Of a stretch of DNA of 64,000 nucleotides, positions 1,563 through 11,079 are shown in pieces. The position numbers were made by a program, and so were the translations under genes. The stretch is from assembly GCA_965231095.1 (NCBI GenBank), contig OZ246416.1, positions 249,228 through 313,227 on the forward strand, written 5' to 3'. Position 1 is the first letter of the stretch. Each line of letters opens with the position of its first letter. The stretch comes from an uncultured Gammaproteobacteria bacterium. GTDB taxonomy: Bacteria > Patescibacteriota > Patescibacteriia > XYB2-FULL-38-15. Below the pieces are notes generated by a model. It made no database searches, was not told where the DNA came from, and saw only the letters and a program-made list of their open reading frames with translations.

Positions 1563-1637
1563 TCGGGGGTAGCTCAGCGGTAGAGCAGCGCGCTGTTAAC
1601 GCGTTGGTCGTGGGTTCGAATCCCACCTCCCGAGCCA
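1563..1637 (+). tRNA. tRNA-Asn (anticodon GTT), CCA encoded
   Basis: Hand-folded cloverleaf: acceptor TCGGGGG/CTCCCGA, D-arm GCTC-AGCGGTA-GAGC, anticodon stem GCGCG/CGCGT with loop CTGTTAA, T-arm GTGGG-TTCGAAT-CCCAC, discriminator G, then CCA. Confidence 0.85.
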
Positions 1638-3236
1638 ATGTGCACGAACAGAGGTCAAAGCCTCTGTTTTTGCTTTGTTCATCGGCCTCTTCGCCGGTTC
1701 TAACCTCAAATATTCTTTTTCCAGGGCGGGATAGCCATTTTTGATAGGCACAAACCAATCGTTCGGTTCAATAATAAGTTTTTCGCCTCTAATTATTGGA
1801 GTTTTTCCAAGTGCTGCCAAAATTTCTTTCTTCAGTTCTAACCCTGCTTTACCCATTTTGTCGGCTCTCAAGAAGGCTACACGTGCGTAGGTCGCGAAAT
1901 TGAAAGTTTTTTCAGTAAGTTCCAACCACTTGTCGGCTCGTGTTTCGGTTTGCCGTAAATTTTCTTTCATTTGGTTAATCTTTCCCTGAAGAGTATTTTT
2001 TTCTCTAACAAAAGTTTCGTCGTCAATAAGTTGGCGGTATCTCATTTTTGTTAGTTCATCCAACTCTTTTTGGGTTTCGGTCAAATTTTTATGTTGCATC
2101 TCATAAACCTTTGTCCGATCTTCAATCTCGTTGTCATTCTTCTTATTTAGCCCTTCCAGCGCCCATTGCAGGAATTCTGGTAGGATAGTATATTTTTCAA
2201 TTTCTTTTTCAATCATAAGCTCCAAGTCGGCCAATGGGATATTTTTTTTCTGGTTACATTTTACTTTTGTCGTTTTCCTTGTGCAGTGATAATAGGTGTG
2301 TTCATGTATCTCGCCAGATTTGAGCAGTTTCTTTTTAGTCTCGGCGGTATAAAGACAGCCACACACACCGCATCGAATTAAACCAGTAAAAGCGAAGTCG
2401 TGAGTCTTCGGCCTCGGTTTGCCTTTTCTCCCAAGGAGCATTTGCACCCGGTCATATTCTTCAAGTGTAATCATCCGTTCGTGTTTGCCTTCGTATTGCG
2501 CGCCGTTGTAGTCTATTACGCCCGTATAGAAGAGATTTGTGAAAATCCGATAAATACCACTTCTCGATAATTCATCGCCGCCCTTCCGCTTAAATTTTCT
2601 TGTCCGAAAGCCCCATTCCTTATTTGCAATATCTAAAATTTTCGGGGGAGTATAATTGCCGGTGAGCATTAAATCCCACATTTTACGAATAATGCTAAAA
2701 CGTTCTGGATCCGTGATTATTATTTTATTTTCTTTGTCGTTAAGATAGCCGAGCGGGGCCACTCCCGTTTGCCAGCCTTTCTCTAATTTGGAAAGCATGC
2801 CGCGTTTCGTATTCTTGCTCAAATCTATGATGTATTGGTTGGCAACGCCGCTTTCAACGCTAAAAAGTAAGACGTTGTCCTCTGGGAGATATTGGCGATC
2901 CATTGTTTGAATTGATTTTAAAACGCCTCTTTGCAAGAGCCAACTTATTTTTCCGCTATCAATCGGATTACGGGAGAGGCGGTTTATTTGCCAGCATAAA
3001 ATTCCGCCTGCTTCGCCATTTTCAATTCGTTGCAGCATTTCGGAGAATAGGGGACGGTTGTCTGGTTTTTTGGCTGATTTAGCCTCGGTATAAACTTTTT
3101 TGATATTTAAATTAAGATCGGTAGCAAGTTTTTTAAGCCGATTGACCTGGTCATCAATAGACTGCACTTGCCGGTCTTCACTTTCCGACGATTTTCTGGC
3201 GTAGATAAAGTATTTAATTAGTTGGTTTGCGGCCAT
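1596..3236 (-). CDS. Large serine recombinase (integrase). The ORF track start at 3329 is TTG; ATG at 3236 (MAANQLIKYFIYARKSS…) is the more plausible start.
   Basis: N-terminal resolvase catalytic domain (YARKSSESEDRQVQSIDDQ; PLFSEMLQRIENGEAGGILCWQINRLSRN), a recombinase domain (GVAPLGYLND), a zinc ribbon (CGVCGCLY…YYHC) and a C-terminal coiled-coil. The 3' end overlaps the tRNA-Asn 3' end, as expected for an element-encoded integrase running through attL. Confidence 0.85.
   Translation of the reverse strand: MAANQLIKYFIYARKSSESEDRQVQSIDDQVNRLKKLATDLNLNIKKVYTEAKSAKKPDNRPLFSEMLQRIENGEAGGILCWQINRLSRNPIDSGKISWLLQRGVLKSIQTMDRQYLPEDNVLLFSVESGVANQYIIDLSKNTKRGMLSKLEKGWQTGVAPLGYLNDKENKIIITDPERFSIIRKMWDLMLTGNYTPPKILDIANKEWGFRTRKFKRKGGDELSRSGIYRIFTNLFYTGVIDYNGAQYEGKHERMITLEEYDRVQMLLGRKGKPRPKTHDFAFTGLIRCGVCGCLYTAETKKKLLKSGEIHEHTYYHCTRKTTKVKCNQKKNIPLADLELMIEKEIEKYTILPEFLQWALEGLNKKNDNEIEDRTKVYEMQHKNLTETQKELDELTKMRYRQLIDDETFVREKNTLQGKINQMKENLRQTETRADKWLELTEKTFNFATYARVAFLRADKMGKAGLELKKEILAALGKTPIIRGEKLIIEPNDWFVPIKNGYPALEKEYLRLEPAKRPMNKAKTEALTSVRAHWLGRWDSNPRPTR
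1615..1637 (+). repeat. attL core: 23-bp direct repeat equal to the tRNA-Asn 3' end (ttcgaatcccacctcccgagcca)
   Basis: Exact 23/23 match to 9908-9930. Confidence 0.65.
1649..1672 (+). terminator. Rho-independent terminator after tRNA-Asn (embedded in the recombinase 3' coding region on the opposite strand)
   Basis: cagagg-tcaaag-cctctg hairpin followed by tttttg. Confidence 0.5.
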
Positions 3237-3455
3237 ATTTTTGTTACAATTTAGCTGGGAGAAAGGAAAGGCAGAAGTTTCCCCCTCCGAAACTTTTGAC
3301 CTCAACCCTTTTCTCTTCTTTAAACTCAAAGGGACGGTCTGGTTGACCCAGTCGCTTCTCCGTGAGGATAGGCTTCTGGCAGACCGCCCCTTAAAGGGCA
3401 GAAACCTATAAAAAATCTCACGGATTTGTCTTATGCTGGGTCAACGTTTTTATTA

Positions 3456-3706
3456 TATCACGATTTTCCACCATTTTCCACCATTTTGATCATAACTGAC
3501 AACGATTTCCCACGATTTCCATACTTTTCCAATATTTTAATCGTAATTTTCCCTGATTTTCCACGATTTTTATTCTTCGACCACCAATCATTTTCAATCA
3601 TTTTCAATCATTTTTATTCTCCTCTTTCCCGGCATTTCCGCCATTTTCCGCCATTTTTCCAATATTTTACATTATTTTTCCGCAATTTTCCGCAATTTTT
3701 ATTCAT
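3456..3706 (+). repeat. Iteron-like array of tandem 10-11 bp direct repeats (ATTTTCCAC/ATTTTCCGC family) between the recombinase start and the SpoVG-like gene
   Basis: ttttccacca x2, cgatttcc x2, caatcatttt x3, ccattttccg x2-3, ccgcaatttt x2. There are about 14 TTTCC cores, all on one strand at helical-turn spacing. Confidence 0.55.
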
Positions 3707-3832
3707 TCATTTTGTAAATAGTTACTTCTACCTTATAGGAAATCTATTAAATAACTTTATAGAGTTAAATATAGAAAGTTATTATATATTGTTAACTATA
3801 TAGATACTTAAATAATTAACTATGAGAGATAG

Positions 3833-4174
3833 CTATTTAGAAAATATTTTTTCAATTTCTTCATCCTGGACTCCCATTCTTTTTTGATAATGGCTGTTAG
3901 TCTGCTTATAGTATTCATTCCAAATCTTTGCTTGCAGGGCTTCCCAGAGGCCTTTTTCGGGCATAAAGAATATCGGACGGTATTTTCCACCCGCCGAGGG
4001 ATAAGAAGGGGGAGTGAGCCATAATTTATCACCTTTTAAGTTTGGATATTGCGACTCCATCACTCTGAAACCCTTGACTATAAGATCTCCAAAATCTACG
4101 GAAATTATGGCTTTTAGTTTTTGCCCTTCAAGCACTTTTACTTTAATAGAGATTACGTCTAAATCTACGTTCAT
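3833..4174 (-). CDS. SpoVG family protein (113 aa)
   Basis: Collinear with SpoVG: LKAIISVDFGDLIVKGFRVMES resembles [24 protein letters not shown], and the C-terminal …IWNEYYK resembles …VLNEYHR. ATG at 4174. Confidence 0.55.
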   Translation of the reverse strand: MNVDLDVISIKVKVLEGQKLKAIISVDFGDLIVKGFRVMESQYPNLKGDKLWLTPPSYPSAGGKYRPIFFMPEKGLWEALQAKIWNEYYKQTNSHYQKRMGVQDEEIEKIFSK

Positions 4175-4198
4175 AAATTTGTTTAGTTAATTGTAATA

Positions 4199-4396
4199 TT
4201 ATGTTTTTAAGTCGCCGGTCTCTTTCCGGCGTTCTTGTAGTTTTTTGTATTCCGTCTCGGTCACTGGTTTATAAATCAACTCAACTAATCGGATGAGTTT
4301 TGCACCCTGCTCATACGCTTCCTCTCGGCTGATTTCTTTGCCGAAGTAGTTTTTATAAAGCGTTTGATAAGTTTTAATTTGCTCATCCGATAGCAT
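4199..4396 (-). CDS. Hypothetical small protein (65 aa)
   Basis: ATG ORF inside the island with coding-like composition; no motif recognised. Confidence 0.4.
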   Translation of the reverse strand: MLSDEQIKTYQTLYKNYFGKEISREEAYEQGAKLIRLVELIYKPVTETEYKKLQERRKETGDLKT

Positions 4397-4399
4397 AGT

Positions 4400-4696
4400 T
4401 TACTCCGAGTAAATTCGGTTTTTTAACATTTTGATATTATCAAAGAACGTCCTCGCCTTAACTTCTAGGCGGTCTGCCCAGTAATTATCAACGACCTTTT
4501 CAATGCCGATTTCTCGGCGAAAGATAAACTGGACTTTTTTGGGATTGGATTTGTCTAATGAGACAAGCTCAAAACCCGCCGTTGTCAATGAGGCGGCGGC
4601 TCCCAAATCAAAGGTATATAGGTGTTGTGAGTAGTCATCCGCGGGAGCGAATTTATTATCACTCCCCGGTTGACCACCTCTGAGTTTTTTGGTCAT
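4400..4696 (-). CDS. DUF5659-like protein (98 aa)
   Basis: TFDLGAAASLTTAGFELVSL…KKVQFIFRRE…VDNYW…KARTFFDNIKMLKNRIY resembles the DUF5659 pattern seen in CPR mobile elements. This is from memory and was not searched. Confidence 0.4.
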   Translation of the reverse strand: MTKKLRGGQPGSDNKFAPADDYSQHLYTFDLGAAASLTTAGFELVSLDKSNPKKVQFIFRREIGIEKVVDNYWADRLEVKARTFFDNIKMLKNRIYSE

Positions 4697-4801
4697 ATAA
4701 TTTTAGTTAGGGTTTTGGCAAATTAAAAAAGCCAAAGTTTTTTATGCTTTGACTTTACCAAAGTGTCAGGTGAGTCAATTACGGCTCAATTGCCTCAAAT
4801 A

Positions 4802-5482
4802 TCAATAATTCCGTTTTATGGTTTTTTCTTGCCAAGTAAATAAATCGTCATTGGTATTTGCTATTTCTTTTATTCGTTTATTAAGGGCGTCCACAGCGTC
4901 ATAAACTATTCGCCAATTCTCTCGGCTGTTTTGAGGTTTGCCATAGTATGCTTCATAATATCCAGTCATTTTTTGATAAATAGATGACCAATCGATTGGT
5001 TCACTTACTCCGTGCTCATACATAGCGCGGCAGAGGTAATGTTCGTTTTTGTATGGTGGGATTTGGCATTTTTGACTGCCAATTTCCAAAATTGCTTTTT
5101 CGTCGTTATATTTTACTCCCAAAGTTTTTAATTCAACCGGTTCGGGGGCTTGTTTGGTAATTTTATTTCTTCTTTCTTGAACGGTGTCTGTAAAAATATA
5201 ATGAAACTCATAAAGTTGATCAAACGCCGGCTGAATTATATCTATGTAAACGTCAGCTCTTAATAGGTCAATGCTATTGGGATCTGTTAGTTTGATAACC
5301 CCGTCTTTGGCTAATTTCCTCAATATACCAATTTCGTCATCGGAAGAGAGCGAATTGTCCCAAATATTGGAAGCGACAAAATAAGGGATATGATTTTCTA
5401 TATCAGCGTATAGTGATCTTTCTTTAATCTTTTTTAAGACGTGCCAAATACTCTCATTGAATTTTTCCTCCGGAAGTGTCAT
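4802..5482 (-). CDS. Hypothetical protein (226 aa), divergent from the RT gene
   Basis: ATG ORF with protein-like composition (W/Y-rich) and no recognisable motif. Confidence 0.5.
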   Translation of the reverse strand: MTLPEEKFNESIWHVLKKIKERSLYADIENHIPYFVASNIWDNSLSSDDEIGILRKLAKDGVIKLTDPNSIDLLRADVYIDIIQPAFDQLYEFHYIFTDTVQERRNKITKQAPEPVELKTLGVKYNDEKAILEIGSQKCQIPPYKNEHYLCRAMYEHGVSEPIDWSSIYQKMTGYYEAYYGKPQNSRENWRIVYDAVDALNKRIKEIANTNDDLFTWQEKTIKRNY

Positions 5483-5595
5483 AGTAATTTATATTATAAT
5501 ATTGCGAAATAACGCATTTCCGATGTAAGATAATATTATCAAACGTTAGGTGTTAAATCAATAACTAGGGGGTCCCTGGTTTGGAGAAAACATTT

Positions 5596-6921
5596 ATGGC
5601 ATTTTATGGAAAAATTATAAAACAAGTCGGGGGAAAATTCTGGCGGCATATTCATAAGGAGACACTTATTCCATATAAGGGCAATATGCCTAGCCGGGAG
5701 AAATTTTTGAAAGATCTTTCAGAGAAGATAGAAAAAATGCAGTATATCCCATCGCCACCTCGTGCTTATATCGTTTCGCATAAACAGAATCTGGTTGTTA
5801 GGTTTATACCTACAATGCAGAGGAGCGATTACTGCATTTATTTTTTTTGTGTTAAATCTCTTGAAAAAGAGATTGCAAAAAATCGTGTGCGGGGCACATA
5901 TGGCGGTTGGAAATTGGGAGGGAAAATTCGAAGAGCAGAGAATGGCGACGATGCACCGTCTACACCAGACGCCAGCTATAACAGATTCGAATGGATGCGC
6001 GCCTGGACAGATTATCAAAAGAGAGCATATGGATTTTATCTAAATGATAAGTTTAAGTATTTTATCGTCTTTGATATTGCAAATTTTTATGACTCGGTAA
6101 GACTTGGAAGGCTTGAAATATTGTTGCGCGAAGCAGCGCAAAAAAATAAAACTTCAGTCGTTAATCTTTTAATATATTTTTTATCGAATTGGGGTAAAAG
6201 GGATTTAAATTACGAAAGGCAAAGCACCGGGTTACCGCAAGACGAGGTCGGAGACTGTTCGAGGATCTTGGCGAATTTTTATTTGCAAGATTATGATAAA
6301 AAAATCTATAAGATTGTTTCGAGAAAAAAGGGTGGTTATCTGAGATATGCGGATGACCAAATTATAGCCGCGCCCAACGAAAAGACGGCAAAAAAAATTA
6401 TGTTTCTCGCTTCGCAAGAACTCGCCAAAATCGGTCTAAATCTAAACGCAAGTAAAGCTAAATTTTTTGAGAATCGAGATGAATTTAGTTATTTTTGGTC
6501 ATTCGATATTTTCAAATTACTCGGAAATAAAAATAACAAAAAAACGATTGAAAGCGCGTATAGTCTTTTTAAAGCAAGGAAGGCTAAGGATATACAATTT
6601 AAATCCGATGCAGTTCTCAAGAGACTTCTAAGTTGCAATCTTCGTTGCATCTCCCGAAATGTTCGCGAAGAGATCCTCGAGATGGTAAATAGAAAAGAAT
6701 TTTTGATTAATGTTAAAGACTATTATCTCAAAAGAATATACGAATTTATGCCCAGAAATAAAAAAAGTATTTTTTTGAAGTATCTAAATAATTTATCAGA
6801 CGAAATCCTTTTTAATGAGTTTCATCTAAGAGTAATGAAATTTTTCCGTGAAAAAAGAATCGACGGGATTTATTCGGATAAGCTACACTCAAATCTATTG
6901 AAACTGAATGATCTCGTGTAA
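5596..6921 (+). CDS. Reverse transcriptase of the retron/Abi/UG (defence-associated) type with an alpha-helical C-terminal extension. The ORF track start at 5581 is TTG; ATG at 5596 is preferred.
   Basis: RT motifs: motif 1/2 (IPSPPRAYIVSHKQNLVVRFIPTMQRSDYCIYF), motif A (FKYFIVFDIANFYDSV), motif B (GLPQDEVGDCSRILANFYL) and motif C (LRYADDQIIAAP), followed by about 200 aa of helical C-terminus. There is no maturase X or endonuclease domain. Confidence 0.85.
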   Translation: MAFYGKIIKQVGGKFWRHIHKETLIPYKGNMPSREKFLKDLSEKIEKMQYIPSPPRAYIVSHKQNLVVRFIPTMQRSDYCIYFFCVKSLEKEIAKNRVRGTYGGWKLGGKIRRAENGDDAPSTPDASYNRFEWMRAWTDYQKRAYGFYLNDKFKYFIVFDIANFYDSVRLGRLEILLREAAQKNKTSVVNLLIYFLSNWGKRDLNYERQSTGLPQDEVGDCSRILANFYLQDYDKKIYKIVSRKKGGYLRYADDQIIAAPNEKTAKKIMFLASQELAKIGLNLNASKAKFFENRDEFSYFWSFDIFKLLGNKNNKKTIESAYSLFKARKAKDIQFKSDAVLKRLLSCNLRCISRNVREEILEMVNRKEFLINVKDYYLKRIYEFMPRNKKSIFLKYLNNLSDEILFNEFHLRVMKFFREKRIDGIYSDKLHSNLLKLNDLV

Positions 6922-6981
6922 ACGTATCTCGCTGATTAAATAACTTTCCAAAATTAATTAAAAACGCTATTATATAAATAC

Positions 6982-7153
6982 ATCTGCCTAAACCTCGCTC
7001 CCTCCGCGAGGCATGGCAACTAAATCCTACGCGAATAAAGATGGTCTCCTGACCAGCACTTATTCGCGTAGGTCCACGTCCGAAAGGGCGTGGGGCGATT
7101 CCGAAAGGGGTCGTCGCTGTGTTGGGAGACCTTTTTTGTTTCCCTAGGCAGAT
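6982..7153 (+). ncRNA. Structured non-coding RNA immediately 3' of the RT (retron msr/msd-like or DRT-like ncRNA candidate)
   Basis: A 9-bp terminal inverted repeat (atctgccta at 6982-6990 and taggcagat at 7145-7153) closes the element. Inside are hairpin cctcgc/gcgagg, a perfect 13-bp stem cctacgcgaataa/ttattcgcgtagg (7026-7038/7060-7072) with a 21-nt loop, and two GAAA-tetraloop hairpins (7074-7093, 7095-7117). It ends with gggagacc + TTTTTT. The GNRA loops read GAAA only on the + strand. Confidence 0.5.
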
Positions 7154-7174
7154 AACAATTAAAACACACAAAAT

Positions 7175-7867
7175 ATGAAAAAAAATCTTCCAAATTGGCT
7201 TCTTTGGATCGCTGTATTCCCGGGAGCATTAATTTTTGGCTTGCTTATATTGTTTCCCCTGCATTGGATACTTTATATGGCTTTTTCTTACGACGGGACT
7301 TTTTTATTTTTTGAGTTACCCCCAGAAACAAATTTAATTGTCGAGAACGCAATTTATCCTGCTGTTTTTGCTATTGCCTTCATCTTTGCCGGTTATAAAA
7401 TTGCGCCAAAATATAAATTTAAAACAGCGATTGTCCTTTTTGGAATTTACTCTATCGCTTGGCTGACCATGATCGCTATAGTATTTTTTCAACCCGACAT
7501 TTACGGCGAGAATTTGTCTTTTCCATGGAGAGCGGCGCTGTCGTTGGTAGGCGCAATTATAGGCTTATATGTAACAAAACGTTACGGAATAAAGAAAATA
7601 GAAGAGAACCCAGCAGAGGACAAAGAATTGGACGAGATGGTGGAGGACTTCAACAGAGAAGCCGAAGCAGAGGGAAAATTAGCCCCACCGCAGGACGAGG
7701 AAACCACCCAAGTAATATTTCAACCAGGAAAATCGAAAGACCGTGGATTGGACGAAGTGATCGCGGACTTCAACAAGGATATGAAAAAATTGGGCGTAAA
7801 GGTAGTGCCGCCGAAAGACGACGGGGAGATACAAGTAGTATTTCGACAAAATTTCAAAAACAAATAA
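7175..7867 (+). CDS. Multi-pass membrane protein (about 4 TM) with an acidic C-terminal tandem repeat; candidate effector of the RT module
   Basis: Hydrophobic N-terminal half. The C-terminus contains two approximately 35-aa repeats (LDEMVEDFNREAEAEGKLAPPQDEETTQVIFQ / LDEVIADFNKDMKKLGVKVVPPKDDGEIQVVFRQ). It starts 22 nt after the ncRNA. Confidence 0.6.
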   Translation: MKKNLPNWLLWIAVFPGALIFGLLILFPLHWILYMAFSYDGTFLFFELPPETNLIVENAIYPAVFAIAFIFAGYKIAPKYKFKTAIVLFGIYSIAWLTMIAIVFFQPDIYGENLSFPWRAALSLVGAIIGLYVTKRYGIKKIEENPAEDKELDEMVEDFNREAEAEGKLAPPQDEETTQVIFQPGKSKDRGLDEVIADFNKDMKKLGVKVVPPKDDGEIQVVFRQNFKNK

Positions 7868-7923
7868 GCCAACCTCAAAATAATAAGTTAATAATATTTA
7901 TAATTTTAACTATAACCTAAACT

Positions 7924-8262
7924 ATGCCTAAAATCATCATCACGTTACTCCTCCCAATGTTACTTTTGGGTGCGGGTTGCGGAGCTGCGACATCTGGAGG
8001 CGGGGAAATTAAAATCACAAATACCGCCGAGAAGCCCGCTCCCGCGCAAAATCTTTATAACCTCGACACCGCCGATTCCGAGAATGTAGATGACTGCGTA
8101 ATCAAGGGTAACATCTCGTCGTCTGGAGAAAAAATATATCACTTGCCAGGATGCGGATCATATAGCCGAACCGTGATTGACGAAAGTGCCGGCGAGGAAT
8201 GGTTTTGTTCAGAAGATGATGCTGAGGCGGCAGGTTGGAGAAAGGCAAAAAATTGTCCTTAA
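7924..8262 (+). CDS. Lipoprotein with a C-terminal 4-Cys domain (112 aa)
   Basis: Lipobox LLLGAGC; C-terminus [43 protein letters not shown]. Confidence 0.5.
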
Positions 8263-8305
8263 TCTGGCGATCTAAGAAAATTTATTTTTAAAAACTAATT
8301 AATTT

Positions 8306-8599
8306 ATGAGTGAAATTACACAACAAAATCAAGGTCATCCAAACGCGAGTGGCTCTATATTTTTGTCAGTTGTAGCGGTAGTATTAATGTTTTTTGGTAT
8401 ACCAGCCATACTTTCGTTGATACTGGTAGCAATATCATCTCGACAAATTTTCAATGCGAAAAAAGCGGGGGAGAGTAAGAAATTTATTATCATCAGTTAT
8501 ATATTTTTGGCAGTCTCCTTGATTCTAGTTTTGATTTTGTCTTTTATAGAAGTTGTTCCTTTTGTAATCCACAGCCTGAAAGAAGCAGAAGCAATATAG
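8306..8599 (+). CDS. Small membrane protein (97 aa, 2-3 TM)
   Basis: Hydrophobic segments flanking a K-rich loop. Confidence 0.45.
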   Translation: MSEITQQNQGHPNASGSIFLSVVAVVLMFFGIPAILSLILVAISSRQIFNAKKAGESKKFIIISYIFLAVSLILVLILSFIEVVPFVIHSLKEAEAI

Positions 8600-8706
8600 G
8601 GGTAAATTTTATCCTCATTGACTATGAGCCCGGCGATAATACCGGGAAGTGTTTTGTTTTGGGAAATAGAGTATAATTAAAATGTTTTTAACTAACCCCA
8701 TAAAAT

Positions 8707-9687
8707 ATGCCTTCTGCGAAACTAGCTAAAGTAAATATAAAAATACCTGCATCATACGAACCATCTTTTGGCATAAGTAGGTGGAGTAAAAATGATTACG
8801 CGAAACCATTAATATTTAAAATCGATAATGCTGAAGCACGGATATTTTTAGAATATCCACCGACGGGGTTCTCGGTATTTCCTAAATTAAAAATATTCCC
8901 ATTTCCGAATCCATTTATAGTTTTACTGATTCGTAATCCAAGTGCTGAATTTATACAAGGATTGAAGGCGAAAAGTGGAGAAAATACTGTTAAAACGGCA
9001 GAACATATCTACAAAATATACGTAGAAGTAGTAAGTAAATTAGAAATTTTGCTTCGAACTGTAGGGGGAGTTAAAAATTTATATGAACTCAGAACTCCGC
9101 CAATAGAAGCGTTATTCAAAAAAAATATTTTAGATTATCCAGTTACCTTTCAAATAGATTCAGAAGATAAAAAACCCTTTAGTCCGAAATTTTCGACAAG
9201 GTCAAGGAGAAGGAACCCTCTTTTTAAAGCCGATCAGCTTGTAACGCCAGATAAGTGGGGGAAGATGCAAAGAGCCATTGATAATCGATATTACGCAAGC
9301 CAAGAAATTATTGAAATATTAAGAATACGAGCGAAGCTATTAGGAGAAAATAAAAAATTAGCAACTCTCGAATCTGCAATTCTTTTCGAAAGTCTGCTGA
9401 GAGACTATTCGCGTAAGACTCTTGAAGAGAGGGGAGTCAGCAATACAAAGGTGAAGGAAGTTAGTGATGAATTAAATTTCAATAATATCCTCAATCTGCT
9501 ACTTCCCCTCAGTTTAAAAAAGGCAGAGGTCCTTAAACTTCGCGAAAGTATAAATACGATTGATGCATTGAGAAAAATTAGAAACAAAGTCATTCATGGA
9601 GAATTGACAGAAGATAAGATTGATAAAAAAATAATTGAAAAGGGGATTGAGGGGGGACTGAAATTGATTAGATTTTTATTTAAATGA
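8707..9687 (+). CDS. Hypothetical protein with a C-terminal HEPN-like Rx4H motif (326 aa); possible Abi-type RNase
   Basis: The C-terminal helical region reads …IDALRKIRNKVIHGELTED… (R-N-x3-H-G, as in HEPN/Abi_2-type domains). The rest is unrecognised. Confidence 0.4.
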   Translation: MPSAKLAKVNIKIPASYEPSFGISRWSKNDYAKPLIFKIDNAEARIFLEYPPTGFSVFPKLKIFPFPNPFIVLLIRNPSAEFIQGLKAKSGENTVKTAEHIYKIYVEVVSKLEILLRTVGGVKNLYELRTPPIEALFKKNILDYPVTFQIDSEDKKPFSPKFSTRSRRRNPLFKADQLVTPDKWGKMQRAIDNRYYASQEIIEILRIRAKLLGENKKLATLESAILFESLLRDYSRKTLEERGVSNTKVKEVSDELNFNNILNLLLPLSLKKAEVLKLRESINTIDALRKIRNKVIHGELTEDKIDKKIIEKGIEGGLKLIRFLFK

Positions 9688-9907
9688 TAAGACTAGCCCC
9701 AGAATATAGGGGAACTTAAAATTAGTTAATACAAATGTTTAGATAGTTCCGGTATATAAACATACTCATTTTGTCGCTGAATTATAGTTCTAACGCTGTC
9801 CACAATTCGGAGCCAAAATAAAAATTCCGACTTTTTGTCGGGGTTTTTATTTTGTGTTTTGTGGTGACAGATTTGAACCCACCCACCGTTAAGCCATCGG
9901 GCGTAGC

Positions 9908-9930
9908 TTCGAATCCCACCTCCCGAGCCA
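9908..9930 (+). repeat. attR core: second copy of the 23-bp tRNA-Asn 3'-end repeat
   Basis: Exact copy of 1615-1637; followed by an AT-rich hairpin that is probably the original tRNA terminator. Confidence 0.65.
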
Positions 9931-9967
9931 AAATAAAATATCCAACGAAAGTTGGGTATTTTATTTT
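9931..9967 (+). terminator. AT-rich 17-bp hairpin with a GAAA loop right after attR (probably the ancestral tRNA-Asn terminator)
   Basis: aaaataaaatatccaac-gaaa-gttgggtattttatttt. Confidence 0.45.
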
Positions 9968-9998
9968 CATTTTAACGATTTTTTGCTAAGATAATACT

Positions 9999-10589
9999 AT
10001 GGATCTAAAAATATTTTTTACAATAATTGCCGCGGTAATTGGTGTCCTAGCTTTCATCCCATATTTAAGGGATATTTTTCTATTGAAAACAAAACCCCAC
10101 GCTTACACCTGGCTCATTTGGGTTATTACCCAAGGAACCGCGGTTTTGGGGATTTGGTATGGCGGTGGGAGATGGGGCGCGCTTAATTTAACGGTCGGAA
10201 TTGTCCTTGCTTTCGTTGTCTTTTTATTTTCTCTAAAATACGGAACAAAAAATATTACAAAGAGTGACACAGCTATTTTAATCGCCGCCCTTTTGGCGAT
10301 TTTAGTTTGGTGGCAATTGGATCAGCCGCTTATTTCCGTGATTATGGTTTCGGCGATTGACGTTATTGGATATTTCCCGAGTTTTAGAAAATCATATCAA
10401 GAACCGTGGAGCGAGACCCTTACTTCTTGGATTTTATTTTCCGTCTCAAATGTTTTTGCGATGCTGGCGTTATCCCAATATAATTTATTAACTTTAACTT
10501 ATTTAGTTTCAATTTCCTTCGCCAATCTTATGCTTTTCACGATTTGTTTAGCGCGAAGACCTCATGTTCCAAAACCAAAATTATTATAA
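9999..10589 (+). CDS. Integral membrane protein (about 6 TM), hypothetical
   Basis: Hydrophobic helices throughout; ATG at 9999. Confidence 0.55.
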   Translation: MDLKIFFTIIAAVIGVLAFIPYLRDIFLLKTKPHAYTWLIWVITQGTAVLGIWYGGGRWGALNLTVGIVLAFVVFLFSLKYGTKNITKSDTAILIAALLAILVWWQLDQPLISVIMVSAIDVIGYFPSFRKSYQEPWSETLTSWILFSVSNVFAMLALSQYNLLTLTYLVSISFANLMLFTICLARRPHVPKPKLL

Positions 10590-10599
10590 TTTCTAAAAT

Positions 10600-11079
10600 A
10601 TGACCTCAAAAAATTTCTTAAAACTAATTATCGCAATTCTGGTTTCCGAAGCCGCGGGGATTATTGGTTCGATTTTCACAACCCCATCAATCTCCGGCTG
10701 GTACGCGAATTTGGTTAAACCGGAATTTGCTCCACCAAATTGGATTTTCGCCCCGGTCTGGACAACACTTTTTGCCCTGATGGGTATTGCGGCATTTCTT
10801 GTGTGGAAGAGGGGATTGGACGACAAAAAAGTAAAAATCGCTCTCGGTATATTTATCGGTCAGTTGGCGCTGAACACTCTTTGGTCAATTATCTTTTTCG
10901 GTCTGCATTCTCCGGCCGGCGCGTTTTTAGAAATTATTTTTTTGTGGCTCGCCATCCTTGCCACAATCATTGCTTTCGCAAAAATTTCTCGCGCCGCAGC
11001 CTGGATTTTGGCGCCCTATATTCTTTGGGTGAGTTTCGCCGCTTATTTAAATTACGCAATTTGGACTCTTAATAAATAA
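10600..11079 (+). CDS. tspO: TspO/MBR family tryptophan-rich sensory protein
   Basis: SGWYANLVKPEFAPPNWIFAPVWTTLFALMGIAAFLVW and a W-rich 5-TM pattern typical of TspO. Confidence 0.8.
   Translation: MTSKNFLKLIIAILVSEAAGIIGSIFTTPSISGWYANLVKPEFAPPNWIFAPVWTTLFALMGIAAFLVWKRGLDDKKVKIALGIFIGQLALNTLWSIIFFGLHSPAGAFLEIIFLWLAILATIIAFAKISRAAAWILAPYILWVSFAAYLNYAIWTLNK

Follow-up and report, generated by a model that had tools for sequence, protein, structure and literature searches.

A LOOT RNA downstream of a UG13b reverse transcriptase gene, at the edge of what looks like a slot for defense cargo

In the 64,000-nucleotide stretch of DNA analyzed here (the window), a densely paired element lies 62 nt downstream of the gene of a standalone reverse transcriptase (RT) and on the same strand. 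This arrangement raises the question whether the element is a new RNA that works together with the RT, as retron-type noncoding RNAs (ncRNAs) do, or an RNA of another kind that has the RT as a neighbor. The first-pass annotation had described a compact structured RNA of the plus strand with GNRA hairpins and a T-run at its end, and this description is supported: a sequence check found all the listed pairings in place. It had also considered the pairing too dense for chance. Indeed, positions 6975 to 7160 of the plus strand had a minimum free energy (MFE) of -94.8 kcal/mol, whereas shuffles averaged -52.8 (z -10.6; 0 of 200 shuffles were as good). On the minus strand, the same region had an MFE of -77.7 (z -6.5 against shuffles), and for the terminated RNA (6980 to 7137) the MFE was -77 (z -7.5). 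Furthermore, the loops are GNRA on the plus strand only, where they read GAAA, and the Rfam match described below is on the plus strand as well.

The Rfam search with cmscan identified 6985 to 7115 (plus strand) as the core of a LOOT RNA (RF03000), comprising the helices P1/P1b, P2, P3, and P4. The match scored 77 bits, above the gathering score of 46.4 (E 9.7e-13), and covered the full model (positions 1 to 121 of 121), and a permissive-filter search of the structured region returned LOOT as the sole real match. The LOOT motif was described by Weinberg et al. in 2017 (PMC5737381), and the family was derived from ZWD/metagenome data (PMC7779021). Our own covariance model R1, built from 73 LOOTs, also matched the window (61.4 bits; E 2.3e-13). 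Typical members score 100 to 138 bits with R1 versus 61 for the window copy, which places the latter among the more divergent LOOTs. Like the Rfam family, and in addition to the above-threshold full-length match, it has a P1 with a CCUAAAC/GCAUGG loop, a long hairpin, and a GAAA loop in each of its two terminal hairpins. The structured RNA in the window is a copy of the LOOT family, and since this family is already catalogued in Rfam, the element is not a new RNA. A tRNA, a tmRNA, or another known family was ruled out, as ARAGORN and Rfam gave LOOT alone at this position; their only tRNA or tmRNA result, a tRNA-Asn, lies elsewhere in the window. Rfam gave no intron match at 6985 to 7115, and a search of GenBank phage records found no similar DNA.

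The LOOT architecture was evaluated using 90 distinct sequences. P1 (6985 to 7018, plus strand; UGCC 6985 to 6988 with GGCA 7015 to 7018) encloses P1b (cctcgc 6993 to 6998 with gcgagg 7006 to 7011), both placed according to the Rfam alignment. P1 was 100% paired and P1b 91%, with 4 pairs altered on both sides. P2, at 7026 to 7072, is a long plus-strand hairpin with a perfect 13-bp stem (7026 to 7038 with 7060 to 7072) and an apical region at 7039 to 7059; its family values, 85% paired with both-side changes in 9 of 10 pairs, come from a helix that lies outside model R1. The two plus-strand hairpins that follow are seen in the sequence and in the Rfam model. P3 (7074 to 7093, ccacgtcc-GAAA-gggcgtgg, loop 7082 to 7085) was 98.7% paired in the family, all 8 pairs covaried, and nearly all members have a GAAA loop. 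P4 (7095 to 7117, gcgattcc-GAAA-ggggtcgtcgc, loop 7103 to 7106) was 98.3% paired with covariation of 6 of 6 pairs, and its loop varies (UUCG, GCAA, or GAAA). Over all helices, 94.8% of the cells were paired; the corresponding values were 74% for shuffles and about 40% for slid controls. Both-side changes were present in 41 of 47 pairs. These counts come from an alignment fitted to a model that includes the pseudoknot described below.

The 11-nt GAAA tetraloop receptor occurs in group I and group II introns and in RNase P. The internal loop of P1, CCUAAAC (6987 to 6993) and GCAUGG (7011 to 7016), resembles it and is found in the same RNA as an invariant GAAA hairpin. The letters of this loop are invariant among the 90 sequences, and those of the window are identical to the invariant alignment columns. 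In contrast to the canonical receptor (consensus CCUAAG/UAUGG; 10.1101/2024.03.11.584472), which has a closing G-U, LOOT has A/C. Judging from these motifs, the GAAA loop of P3 is the likely partner that would dock into the receptor-like loop of P1. The intron core of group I and II introns, however, is missing from LOOT, with no counterpart of intron P3, P7, or P8. The search pattern on the receptor loop also retrieved contigs carrying group I introns. These and the remaining non-LOOT matches, which lie in group I intron contexts and at a tRNA-like 3' end, share with LOOT the receptor motif only and were rejected as relatives.

The Rfam model ends at P4, and the 3' strand, the U-run, and a pseudoknot are all missing from it. 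According to the first-pass annotation, a mini-hairpin ggtc-tcct-gacc (7043 to 7054; GGUC 7043 to 7046 with GACC 7051 to 7054) is enclosed in the long stem, and the element finishes with gggagacc (7124 to 7131) and T6 (7132 to 7137). Both are present in the sequence, but they are better described as opposite strands of a single long-range helix. Its 5' strand is the A-rich tract with the apical loop of P2 (7039 to 7052, plus strand; AGAUGGUCUCCUGA), and its 3' strand is UUGGGAGACC (7122 to 7131), which together with the U-run at 7132 to 7137 forms the presumed 3' end and terminator (7122 to 7137, plus strand). Pairing of 7039 to 7052 with 7122 to 7135 involves 13 of 14 positions in the window, and duplex folding including the flanks gave -19.5 kcal/mol with 15 pairs. 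In the family (alignment columns 86 to 101 with 204 to 218), this pseudoknot helix reached 98.5% pairing, with both-side changes in 14 of 14 pairs. The median duplex energy was -15.2 kcal/mol for a member's own strands and -8.7 for strands of mismatched sequences. The same helix was predicted by RNAalifold on a plain MAFFT alignment that was not fitted to it.

We also considered a local apical hairpin plus a local terminator hairpin in place of the pseudoknot. These were 65 to 88% paired and leave the loop-loop covariation unexplained: the covarying columns 99 to 101 and 204 to 206 are hairpin-loop positions in the local-hairpin model. We therefore rejected this alternative as the family structure; both local hairpins may form transiently in the main LOOT subtype. 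Unlike the family, the window copy has the pseudoknot helix without a local terminator hairpin as an alternative. Since the terminator scan of the plus strand called no local hairpin terminator, with U6 present at 7132 to 7137, the helix preceding the U-run is the long-range one. In the same scan, the apical hairpin with the A-tract reads as a terminator of the minus strand. Past the U-run, GUUUCCC (7138 to 7144, plus strand) is the complement of GGGAGAC (7124 to 7130) and pairs with it in the MFE structure, with the U-run in the loop; this predicted pairing could form in read-through RNA only. By eye, similar post-terminator complements are seen in other LOOTs, for example at loci L134, L123, and L154.

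The terminal inverted repeat that had been reported for the element, atctgccta (6982 to 6990) with taggcagat (7145 to 7153, plus strand), is indeed present with 9 of 9 bp. Its duplex energy of -14.5 kcal/mol is significant for the window copy (z -5.7 relative to shuffles), yet the repeat is not a feature of the LOOT family. Its 3' half lies past the U-run, an addition that distinguishes the window copy from other LOOTs, and the repeat competes with the conserved P1 (6985 to 6988 with 7015 to 7018). Across the family, the median z was 0.08, with 3 of 79 members below -2, and as a closing helix the repeat was rejected, being confined in the shuffle test to the window, L156, and L211. The partner-permutation test (-5.85 versus -5.7) is uninformative because the flanks share A/U-rich boxes.

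The RT gene (5581 to 6921, plus strand; Pfam RVT_1, 5e-13) belongs to the UG13b class. PADLOC assigned it to RT_UG13b with 5.1e-143; the runners-up were other UG groups at 1e-32 or weaker, and the retron-type models RT_III-A and RT_II-A reached only about 1e-14 to 1e-12. The retron ncRNA is normally located upstream of the RT. As in retrons and DRT systems, a structured ncRNA adjoins a standalone prokaryotic RT and is co-oriented with it in the window, and the flanking inverted repeats recall the retron a1/a2 repeats. LOOT could be the ncRNA partner of the RT, providing a template or primer in the way of retrons (msr-msd) or DRT2/DRT9-type systems, with its folded-back 3' end or the long hairpin being reverse-transcribed. 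Several UG-class RTs require a neighboring ncRNA (UG2/DRT2, UG28/DRT9, and UG3+UG8/DRT3), and for UG13 no ncRNA was reported in the same study (PMC9226505). In favor of such a partnership, the 3' U-run and an internal A-rich strand pair in a primer-template-like geometry, and two more loci combine LOOT with a UG13b RT (L008 and L246), while DGR-type RTs are found near LOOT in L082, L129, and L185.

Nevertheless, we regard a partnership with the RT as quite unlikely. LOOT was present in 1 of 80 genome RT loci, and 79 had no LOOT within about 4 kb; the closest RT relative (79% identity) had no LOOT within 4 kb when searched with filters off. In L001, L002, L004, L005, and L006, the sequence that follows the RT folded no better than shuffles (z at least -1.8). 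A conserved structure downstream of homologous RTs, which the first-pass annotation had made a test of its proposal, was thus looked for and is missing, and the proposed functional tie of the RNA to the RT, msd-like or other, is not supported on the same counts. With the window included, LOOT lies near related RTs in 3 of about 84 distinct loci, and the order and spacing differ among them: 62 nt downstream of the RT in the window, 1.27 kb downstream with another ORF in between in L246, and 1.6 kb upstream in L008. Moreover, the LOOT of L246 is of a different subtype than that of the window, though the two RTs are 71% identical. From the LOOT side, any RT was found in only 5 of the 67 loci that have 4 kb or more of flank, these RTs belonging to two classes, and 62 had none. 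In contrast to retron and DRT-type ncRNAs, LOOT is not conserved with an RT family and mostly occurs without any RT. Compared to retrons in particular, the RT falls into a different clade, the RNA lies downstream, and 3 of 79 LOOT members have any repeats of the a1/a2 kind. Compared to the DRT systems of UG2, UG28, and UG3+UG8, a group-specific ncRNA at a fixed position in most homologs is not seen. We rejected a retron or DRT-type ncRNA because of the RT class and the missing co-conservation. The co-occurrence of LOOT and RTs (3 of about 84 RT loci; 5 of 67 LOOT loci) nonetheless exceeds random placement, and therefore there may be some link between them. A very improbable form of it is that the folded-back 3' end of LOOT is a self-primed template usable by unrelated RTs, UG13b here and DGR-type elsewhere. 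The U-run is paired to the internal A-rich strand beside a variable loop. If that reading were true, the RT-LOOT pair would be a working two-part retroelement or defense module.

The position of LOOT in its mobile element offers another view of the RT. The window contains an island of about 8.5 kb. Its limits are rpoD and a tRNA-Asn at one end; at the other, from about 10.6 kb onward, come TspO, lipid-synthesis genes, and MetRS. The tRNA-Asn (1563 to 1637; ARAGORN and Rfam) adjoins the gene of a large serine recombinase (1596 to 3329, minus strand; Pfam Resolvase, Recombinase, and Zn_ribbon_recom), which is divergent from LOOT and whose product shares 59% identity with the L214 recombinase. 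Some 5.4 kb separate LOOT from the tRNA end of the island, and this internal position rules it out as attP or island junction in the window. For comparison with other loci, LOOTs were gathered with the pattern GGCATGGYGAA, which biases the sample and excludes the window's own variant; the 114 loci include many short contigs, and their ORFs were called naively. Of the 44 loci whose upstream flank is 3 kb or longer, 18 have a serine recombinase of the window's protein cluster upstream of LOOT, and full-length copies are always on the strand opposite to LOOT. The interval between the two is empty in 7 to 8 loci, where the recombinase starts about 160 nt from LOOT. In L149 it is filled by Gabija (GajA, 1e-285; GajB, 1e-222), which ends 101 nt before LOOT, and in L124 by a type II MTase and REase, with 55 nt between them and LOOT; the window has the UG13b RT in this place. 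This interval looks like a slot for swappable anti-phage defense cargo. Since LOOT marks the edge of the slot, and the same slot holds Gabija or a restriction-modification system elsewhere, the RT looks like cargo, a neighbor of LOOT by way of the hotspot and not its enzyme.

In temperate phages and their satellites, anti-phage hotspots of the P2/P4 type are intervals next to the integrase that are bounded by conserved elements. Like the LOOT slot, they are empty in some relatives and hold unrelated defense systems in others. The LOOT slot differs from them in that one boundary is a structured RNA gene instead of a protein gene, the hosts are apparently bacteria of the candidate phyla radiation (CPR), and the integrase is a large serine recombinase. 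The LOOT-bearing mobile elements appear to belong to such CPR (Patescibacteria-like) bacteria, and, going by the relatives of the RT, the island of the window seems to come from a small-genome bacterium of this kind. Downstream of LOOT, a DNA methylase, a small HTH protein, and a terminase-like protein are recurrent. In the window, tblastn with these clusters gave no match to such a packaging module, and the recombinase alone was matched.

Upstream of LOOT, a consensus scan found a promoter-like site at 6945 to 6973 (plus strand; TTTCCA, 17-nt spacer, TATTAT). This putative promoter would start an RNA at about 6980 to 6983; the scan is not significant alone (1 site found versus 1.1 expected). 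Across the family, TANNNT boxes cluster 26 to 31 nt upstream of the first LOOT position. LOOT would need a promoter of its own, because the upstream gene is on the opposite strand about as often as on the same strand. On the other side, the gene that LOOT precedes in the window is a same-strand ORF of 230 aa with 3 TM-like segments (7175 to 7867, plus strand), which starts 38 nt after the U-run. In naively called ORFs of the family sample, the nearest downstream ORF is on the same strand as LOOT in 53 of 61 loci, with a median gap of 44 nt, and 39 of 54 downstream ORFs (72%) have a TM-like segment versus 24% of other ORFs. The downstream genes are not mutually homologous and share no common protein family. 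Between the U-run and the ORF, a TTATTA-like box is present in 44 of 79 loci compared to 17 when shuffled; it could be the ORF's own promoter.

We favor, with a probability of roughly 55%, the reading that LOOT is a self-contained RNA of about 150 nt beside a defense-cargo slot, acting as a leader/attenuator-type regulator or a linked sRNA, with the RT as cargo. The unit would extend from the promoter-like site through to the U-run. It would be transcribed from its own promoter, and the pseudoknot helix, forming ahead of the U-run, would end the transcript and seal its 3' end. The RNA would then act on the downstream membrane-protein gene as a leader/attenuator-type regulator or as a closely linked sRNA. 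Like a cis-regulatory leader, LOOT is located upstream of and co-oriented with a gene. Counting against a leader is the lack of homology among the downstream genes, which is unusual for cis-regulatory leaders, and against an attenuator that the elaborate tertiary fold exceeds what attenuation needs.

Phages use short antisense RNAs for immunity, such as c4 of P1 and CI of P4. Similar to these and to cis-acting leaders, LOOT is a short RNA with its own putative promoter and a U-run end, and a gene on the same strand follows it directly. A further likeness to c4 and CI is seen in one fifth of the family (15 of 78 LOOTs), in which the P2 3' arm is the complement of the 9 to 16 nt that immediately precede the downstream start codon. 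It is possible, if doubtful, that LOOT serves the mobile element in trans or by binding proteins and that its membrane-protein neighbor is incidental. Such an RNA would have a role in immunity or lysogeny in the manner of P4 CI and P1 c4, or it would be structural, assembling with proteins or with copies of itself, like other ornate phage-associated RNAs. The type given to LOOT in Rfam is sRNA, and this explanation would account for the promoter-like box with a strong U-run, the compact fold with receptor and GAAA loop, the c4-like antisense geometry, and the proximity to the recombinase gene and, in IMG/VR contigs, to packaging-type genes. In addition, the apical loop and the 3' strand could pair between molecules, and ROOL and GOLLD RNAs are reported to form homo-oligomers (PMC12286853). 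However, a free-standing sRNA gene would not be expected to share its strand with the downstream ORF in 87% of the loci, with a median gap of 44 nt. Moreover, the antisense-type repeat is missing in 80% of the members, including the window copy, and where present it lies in a stable stem and not in a loop. In these respects, and in its far more elaborate tertiary architecture and non-homologous downstream genes, LOOT is unlike c4/CI and attenuators. A repeat of the P2 5' arm before the start codon was rejected as a general mechanism, since it is absent in the window (longest shared word, 5 nt).

Finally, the pairing could be due to chance or belong to the DNA, as an inverted-repeat recombination site, an att site, or a bidirectional terminator. 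The 9-bp terminal repeat specific to the window copy, the presence of a recombinase in the island, and the terminator-like reading of the apical hairpin and A-tract on the minus strand would fit this idea. It is contradicted by RNA-type covariation with G-U pairs in six helices of 90 distinct sequences, by the strand specificity of the GNRA loops and the receptor motif, and by the island-internal position of LOOT, which is not at a junction. We consider it barely credible.

The framing as a new RT-linked RNA fails, and there is no ground to pursue the locus as a retron-like system. Instead, LOOT gains an address in the genome, the border of an integrase-proximal slot for defense cargo, in mobile elements apparently of CPR bacteria. 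It also gains a consistent class of downstream partners, small membrane proteins, and a strongly covarying pseudoknot that ties the 3' end and the U-run into the fold. Together, the address, the partner class, and the pseudoknot lead to testable predictions on termination and on regulation of the downstream gene. Furthermore, LOOT could serve as a landmark for defense islands in genomes that are hard to annotate.

The first-pass annotation had described a compact structured RNA at 6982-7153 and suggested a link to the preceding reverse transcriptase (RT) gene, possibly as an msd-like element. All the pairings listed for it are present at the coordinates given, and pairing exceeds chance: as a plus-strand RNA, 6975-7160 folds at -94.8 kcal/mol, compared to -52.8 ± 4.0 kcal/mol for its dinucleotide shuffles (z = -10.6), while the minus strand reaches -77.7 kcal/mol (z = -6.5 against dinucleotide shuffles). 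The region is part of a 253-nt intergenic gap between the RT gene (5581-6921, +) and an ORF of 230 aa (7175-7867, +). The curated Rfam search of the 64-kb window returned two matches, tRNA-Asn (1563-1634) and LOOT RNA (RF03000), the latter at 6985-7115 (+) with 77 bits (gathering score, 46.4; E = 9.7e-13) and spanning the entire 121-position model. Nothing real besides LOOT was detected by a permissive Rfam search of 6850-7300. LOOT is one of the candidate structured RNAs in the Weinberg/Breaker collection (PMC5737381) and entered Rfam as a metagenome-based family (PMC7779021); no paper assigning a function to it was found in the literature searched. We conclude that the RNA of the window is real and well observed, but belongs to a known family.

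A DNA search pattern based on the invariant loop of helix P1 was applied to IMG/VR viral contigs, where 5 of 42 matches were LOOTs. A slightly altered pattern yielded 120 metagenome loci, about 100 of them clear LOOTs, in a sample biased by the pattern itself. In P1, the loop CCUAAAC...GCAUGG closely resembles CCUAAG/UAUGG, the 11-nt GAAA tetraloop receptor (10.1101/2024.03.11.584472), and this likeness explains why the looser pattern also matched group I intron contexts. Using R1, a covariance model that we built from 73 LOOTs, we identified 91 LOOTs in 100 sources; these form alignment A4, and pairing was calculated for its 90 distinct rows. P1 was 100% paired, P1b 91%, P3 98.7%, and P4 98.3%. 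The long hairpin P2 was 85% paired though it is outside the R1 model, and 9 of its 10 pairs had changed on both sides. Over all helices, 94.8% of the cells were paired, compared to 74% in shuffles and about 40% with slid partners.

In L136 (2805-2876), a LOOT ends after the P2 5' arm, and a TTTATTAAG box with the start of an ORF follows at once; this is possibly a deletion derivative. In five loci (L150, L177, L202, L168, and L169), the receptor loop of LOOT precedes a GAUAGUCC-like box and a 3' end resembling that of a tRNA (GGTTCAAGTCCGG...CCA). ARAGORN and Rfam at the gathering threshold gave no call on these elements; they may be tRNA genes with small group I introns inserted. Furthermore, many IMG/VR contigs (L086, L087, L089, L093-L095, L098, L101, L103, L110, L115, L119, and L121) share a near-identical CAAACCCAAGCAGCCTAAACC-hairpin-GGCATGGCAAATACCCGTGACC element, whose receptor-type loop shortly precedes a small Cys-rich ORF (MCPQCGEMW...); an Rfam scan of L086, the one contig scanned for it, gave no match.

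RNAalifold, applied to a plain MAFFT alignment, paired the conserved UAAAGA-A-CCCAUCAU in upper P2 with GUGGUGGG-C-UUUUUG at the 3' end. This pseudoknot helix was 98.5% paired in A4, and all its 14 pairs had changed on both sides; A4 was fitted to a model already containing the pseudoknot, while the RNAalifold result and the energy test below are independent of the fitting. Covariation extends to columns 99-101 with 204-206, positions that purely local hairpins would leave in their loops. Local apical and terminator hairpins in place of the pseudoknot were just 65 to 88% paired. Complementarity of the two strands is kept in at least seven sequence types (for example, CUCCUAGUCAG/CUGGCUAGGAG and CCUGUAAUC/GGUUGCAGG; GGUCUCCUGA/UUGGGAGACC in the window), and the median duplex energy was -15.2 kcal/mol for a LOOT's own apical and 3' strands versus -8.7 kcal/mol for partners with a different core. 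The pseudoknot of the window (7039-7052/7122-7135) has 13 of 14 positions paired and, with flanks, -19.5 kcal/mol. Since a terminator scan of the window detected no local terminator hairpin on the plus strand at LOOT, the helix abutting the T6 run is this long-range pseudoknot, which is missing from the Rfam model. On the minus strand, the apical mini-hairpin of P2 and an A-tract (7042-7055) read as an intrinsic terminator, TGGTCAGGAGACCA then TCTTTATT, and by this sequence the LOOT gene might also halt convergent transcription.

The terminal inverted repeat noticed in the first pass is located past the U-run, and its pairing competes with that of the conserved P1. Its 9 bp are significant in the window (z = -5.7 against shuffles), but the repeat is not a family feature: the median z across LOOTs was 0.08, with values below -2 only in the window, one L156 copy, and L211. 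It is thus a peculiarity of the window copy, possibly relevant only to read-through RNA. L156 carries, on its minus strand, a tandem pair of divergent LOOTs (592-732 and 1383-1519) about 790 nt apart. A long outer helix (about -32 kcal/mol) surrounds the first copy, which lacks a U-run, and this arrangement is the sole strong analogue of the window's repeat.

In 114 loci, the ORFs up to 6 kb from LOOT were called and clustered, with short contigs and naive ORF calling limiting the counts that follow. LOOT and the ORF immediately downstream shared a strand in 53 of 61 loci (median gap, 44 nt), and 39 of 54 such ORFs had a TM-like segment, compared to 24% of other ORFs. The strand of the upstream neighbor was about even, and therefore LOOT needs its own promoter. 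TANNNT boxes peak 26 to 31 nt upstream of LOOT in the family, and the window has a promoter-like site, TTTCCA-17-TATTAT, at 6945-6973. A transcript would run from about 6980 to 7137, the P3 GAAA loop would dock into the P1 receptor, and the pseudoknot helix would form ahead of the U-run, ending the transcript and burying its 3' end.

Given how consistently LOOT is co-oriented with the downstream membrane-protein gene and how short the gap is, we favor a role for it as a leader or attenuator of that gene, or as a tightly linked sRNA; that it acts freely in trans or binds a protein is nearly as likely. In 15 of 78 LOOTs (L123, L124, L134, L137, L140, L144, L149, L159, L161, L192, L195, L204, L205, L207, and L082), a 9- to 16-nt exact direct repeat of the P2 5' arm is located 10 to 31 nt past the U-run and ends 0 to 7 nt ahead of the downstream ORF's start codon (null rate, about 1%). 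This makes the P2 3' arm antisense to the region of translation start, and in L134 the downstream copy complements it better than the hairpin's own 5' arm does. These sequences hint at antisense control in a LOOT subfamily; in the window, the downstream start codon is not preceded by one of these repeats.

The RT has an RVT_1 domain and matches the PADLOC RT_UG13b model over its full length (5.1e-143). Mestre et al. 2022 predicted a defence role for UG13b and described ncRNAs for UG2, UG28, UG3+UG8, and UG27, with none for UG13 (PMC9226505). A homology search gave 836 proteins at E ≤ 1e-10; named relatives among the 120 matches listed were from Patescibacteria, Berkelbacteria, WOR-1, and Bacteroidota. 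In 80 genomic loci encoding relatives, Rfam detected LOOT among the first 20 solely in L008 (Nomurabacteria), where two ORFs separate it from the RT 1.6 kb downstream, and an R1 search of the window and all 80 loci detected no LOOT other than those of the window and L008. P0002, at 79% identity the closest relative (three contigs), had no LOOT within 4 kb even with filters off, and a 71% relative in L246 had a LOOT of another subtype than the window's 1.27 kb downstream, past a 346-aa ORF. Counting the window, about 84 distinct RT loci were examined; 3 of them had a LOOT, each arranged differently. Conversely, any RT was present in just 5 of 67 LOOT loci having at least 4 kb of flank (two UG13b; three DGR-like with IGNLTSQ and RVT_1). 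Regions downstream of the RT in L001, L002, L004, L005, and L006, where several RTs are in operons with large flanking ORFs, folded no better than shuffles (z ≥ -1.8). A conserved structure is therefore missing downstream of the homologous RTs, one of the outcomes that the first-pass annotation had said would refute it. On these data LOOT is independent of the RT, and the proposed link is not supported.

The IGNLTSQ motif is typical of diversity-generating retroelement RTs, a type unrelated to UG13b. Such RTs are located within 3 kb of LOOT in L082 (5791-7071), L129 (1472-2518), and L185 (7111-7947); that of L082 is on LOOT's strand and ends 135 nt upstream of it. In L243-L245 (2704-5326), the 79% RT homolog has a Schlafen/AlbA_2-domain protein before it and, across an AT-rich gap of 275 nt with no LOOT match, an Exo_endo_phos protein after it. 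Other close RT homologs directly follow ORFs of 680 to 1,065 aa, and UG13b RTs may usually work with protein partners.

The commonest LOOT neighbor was a large serine recombinase (Resolvase, Recombinase, and Zn_ribbon_recom domains), found on the upstream side in 18 of the 44 loci whose upstream flank spans at least 3 kb, its full-length copies always on the opposite strand. Downstream, also on the opposite strand, were an N6/N4 DNA methylase (9/42 loci), a small HTH protein (8/42), and a terminase-like protein (7/42); together with the IMG/VR origin of five loci, these genes suggest temperate phages or related integrative elements. The window ORF at 1596-3329 (-) belongs to the recombinase cluster, and its 3' end overlaps the tRNA-Asn gene. 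It is part of an island of about 8.5 kb (1563-10600) between tRNA-Asn and housekeeping genes, delimited by its flanking genes, with no att sites identified. On the left are rpoD (270-1505) and tRNA-Asn; TspO, CDP-alcohol phosphatidyltransferase, CarS-like, methylase, and MetRS genes follow from about 10.6 kb. The island also encodes several small membrane proteins and a weakly matching HEPN (RiboL-PSP)-like ORF (8707-9687).

In 7 to 8 loci the recombinase starts about 160 nt from LOOT, leaving the interval empty; elsewhere, it is filled by unrelated genes. L149 (4147-8081; LOOT, 8182-8319) holds a complete Gabija system (GajA, 1.4e-285; GajB, 1.5e-222) ending 101 nt before LOOT, and L124 (4386-6527; LOOT, 6582-6719) a type II methyltransferase (3e-160) and a restriction enzyme (2.6e-37) ending 55 nt before it. 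In the window, it contains SpoVG-like (3833-4174) and DUF5659 (4400-4696) proteins, small ORFs, and the UG13b RT, which ends 62 nt before LOOT. An empty-or-filled interval beside an integrase is the look of temperate-phage defence hotspots of the P2/P4 type, and such a cargo slot explains an RT beside LOOT without functional coupling. Two by-products are of interest for the family: the pseudoknot, which would act as a terminator, and the position of LOOT at the edge of a defence-cargo slot.
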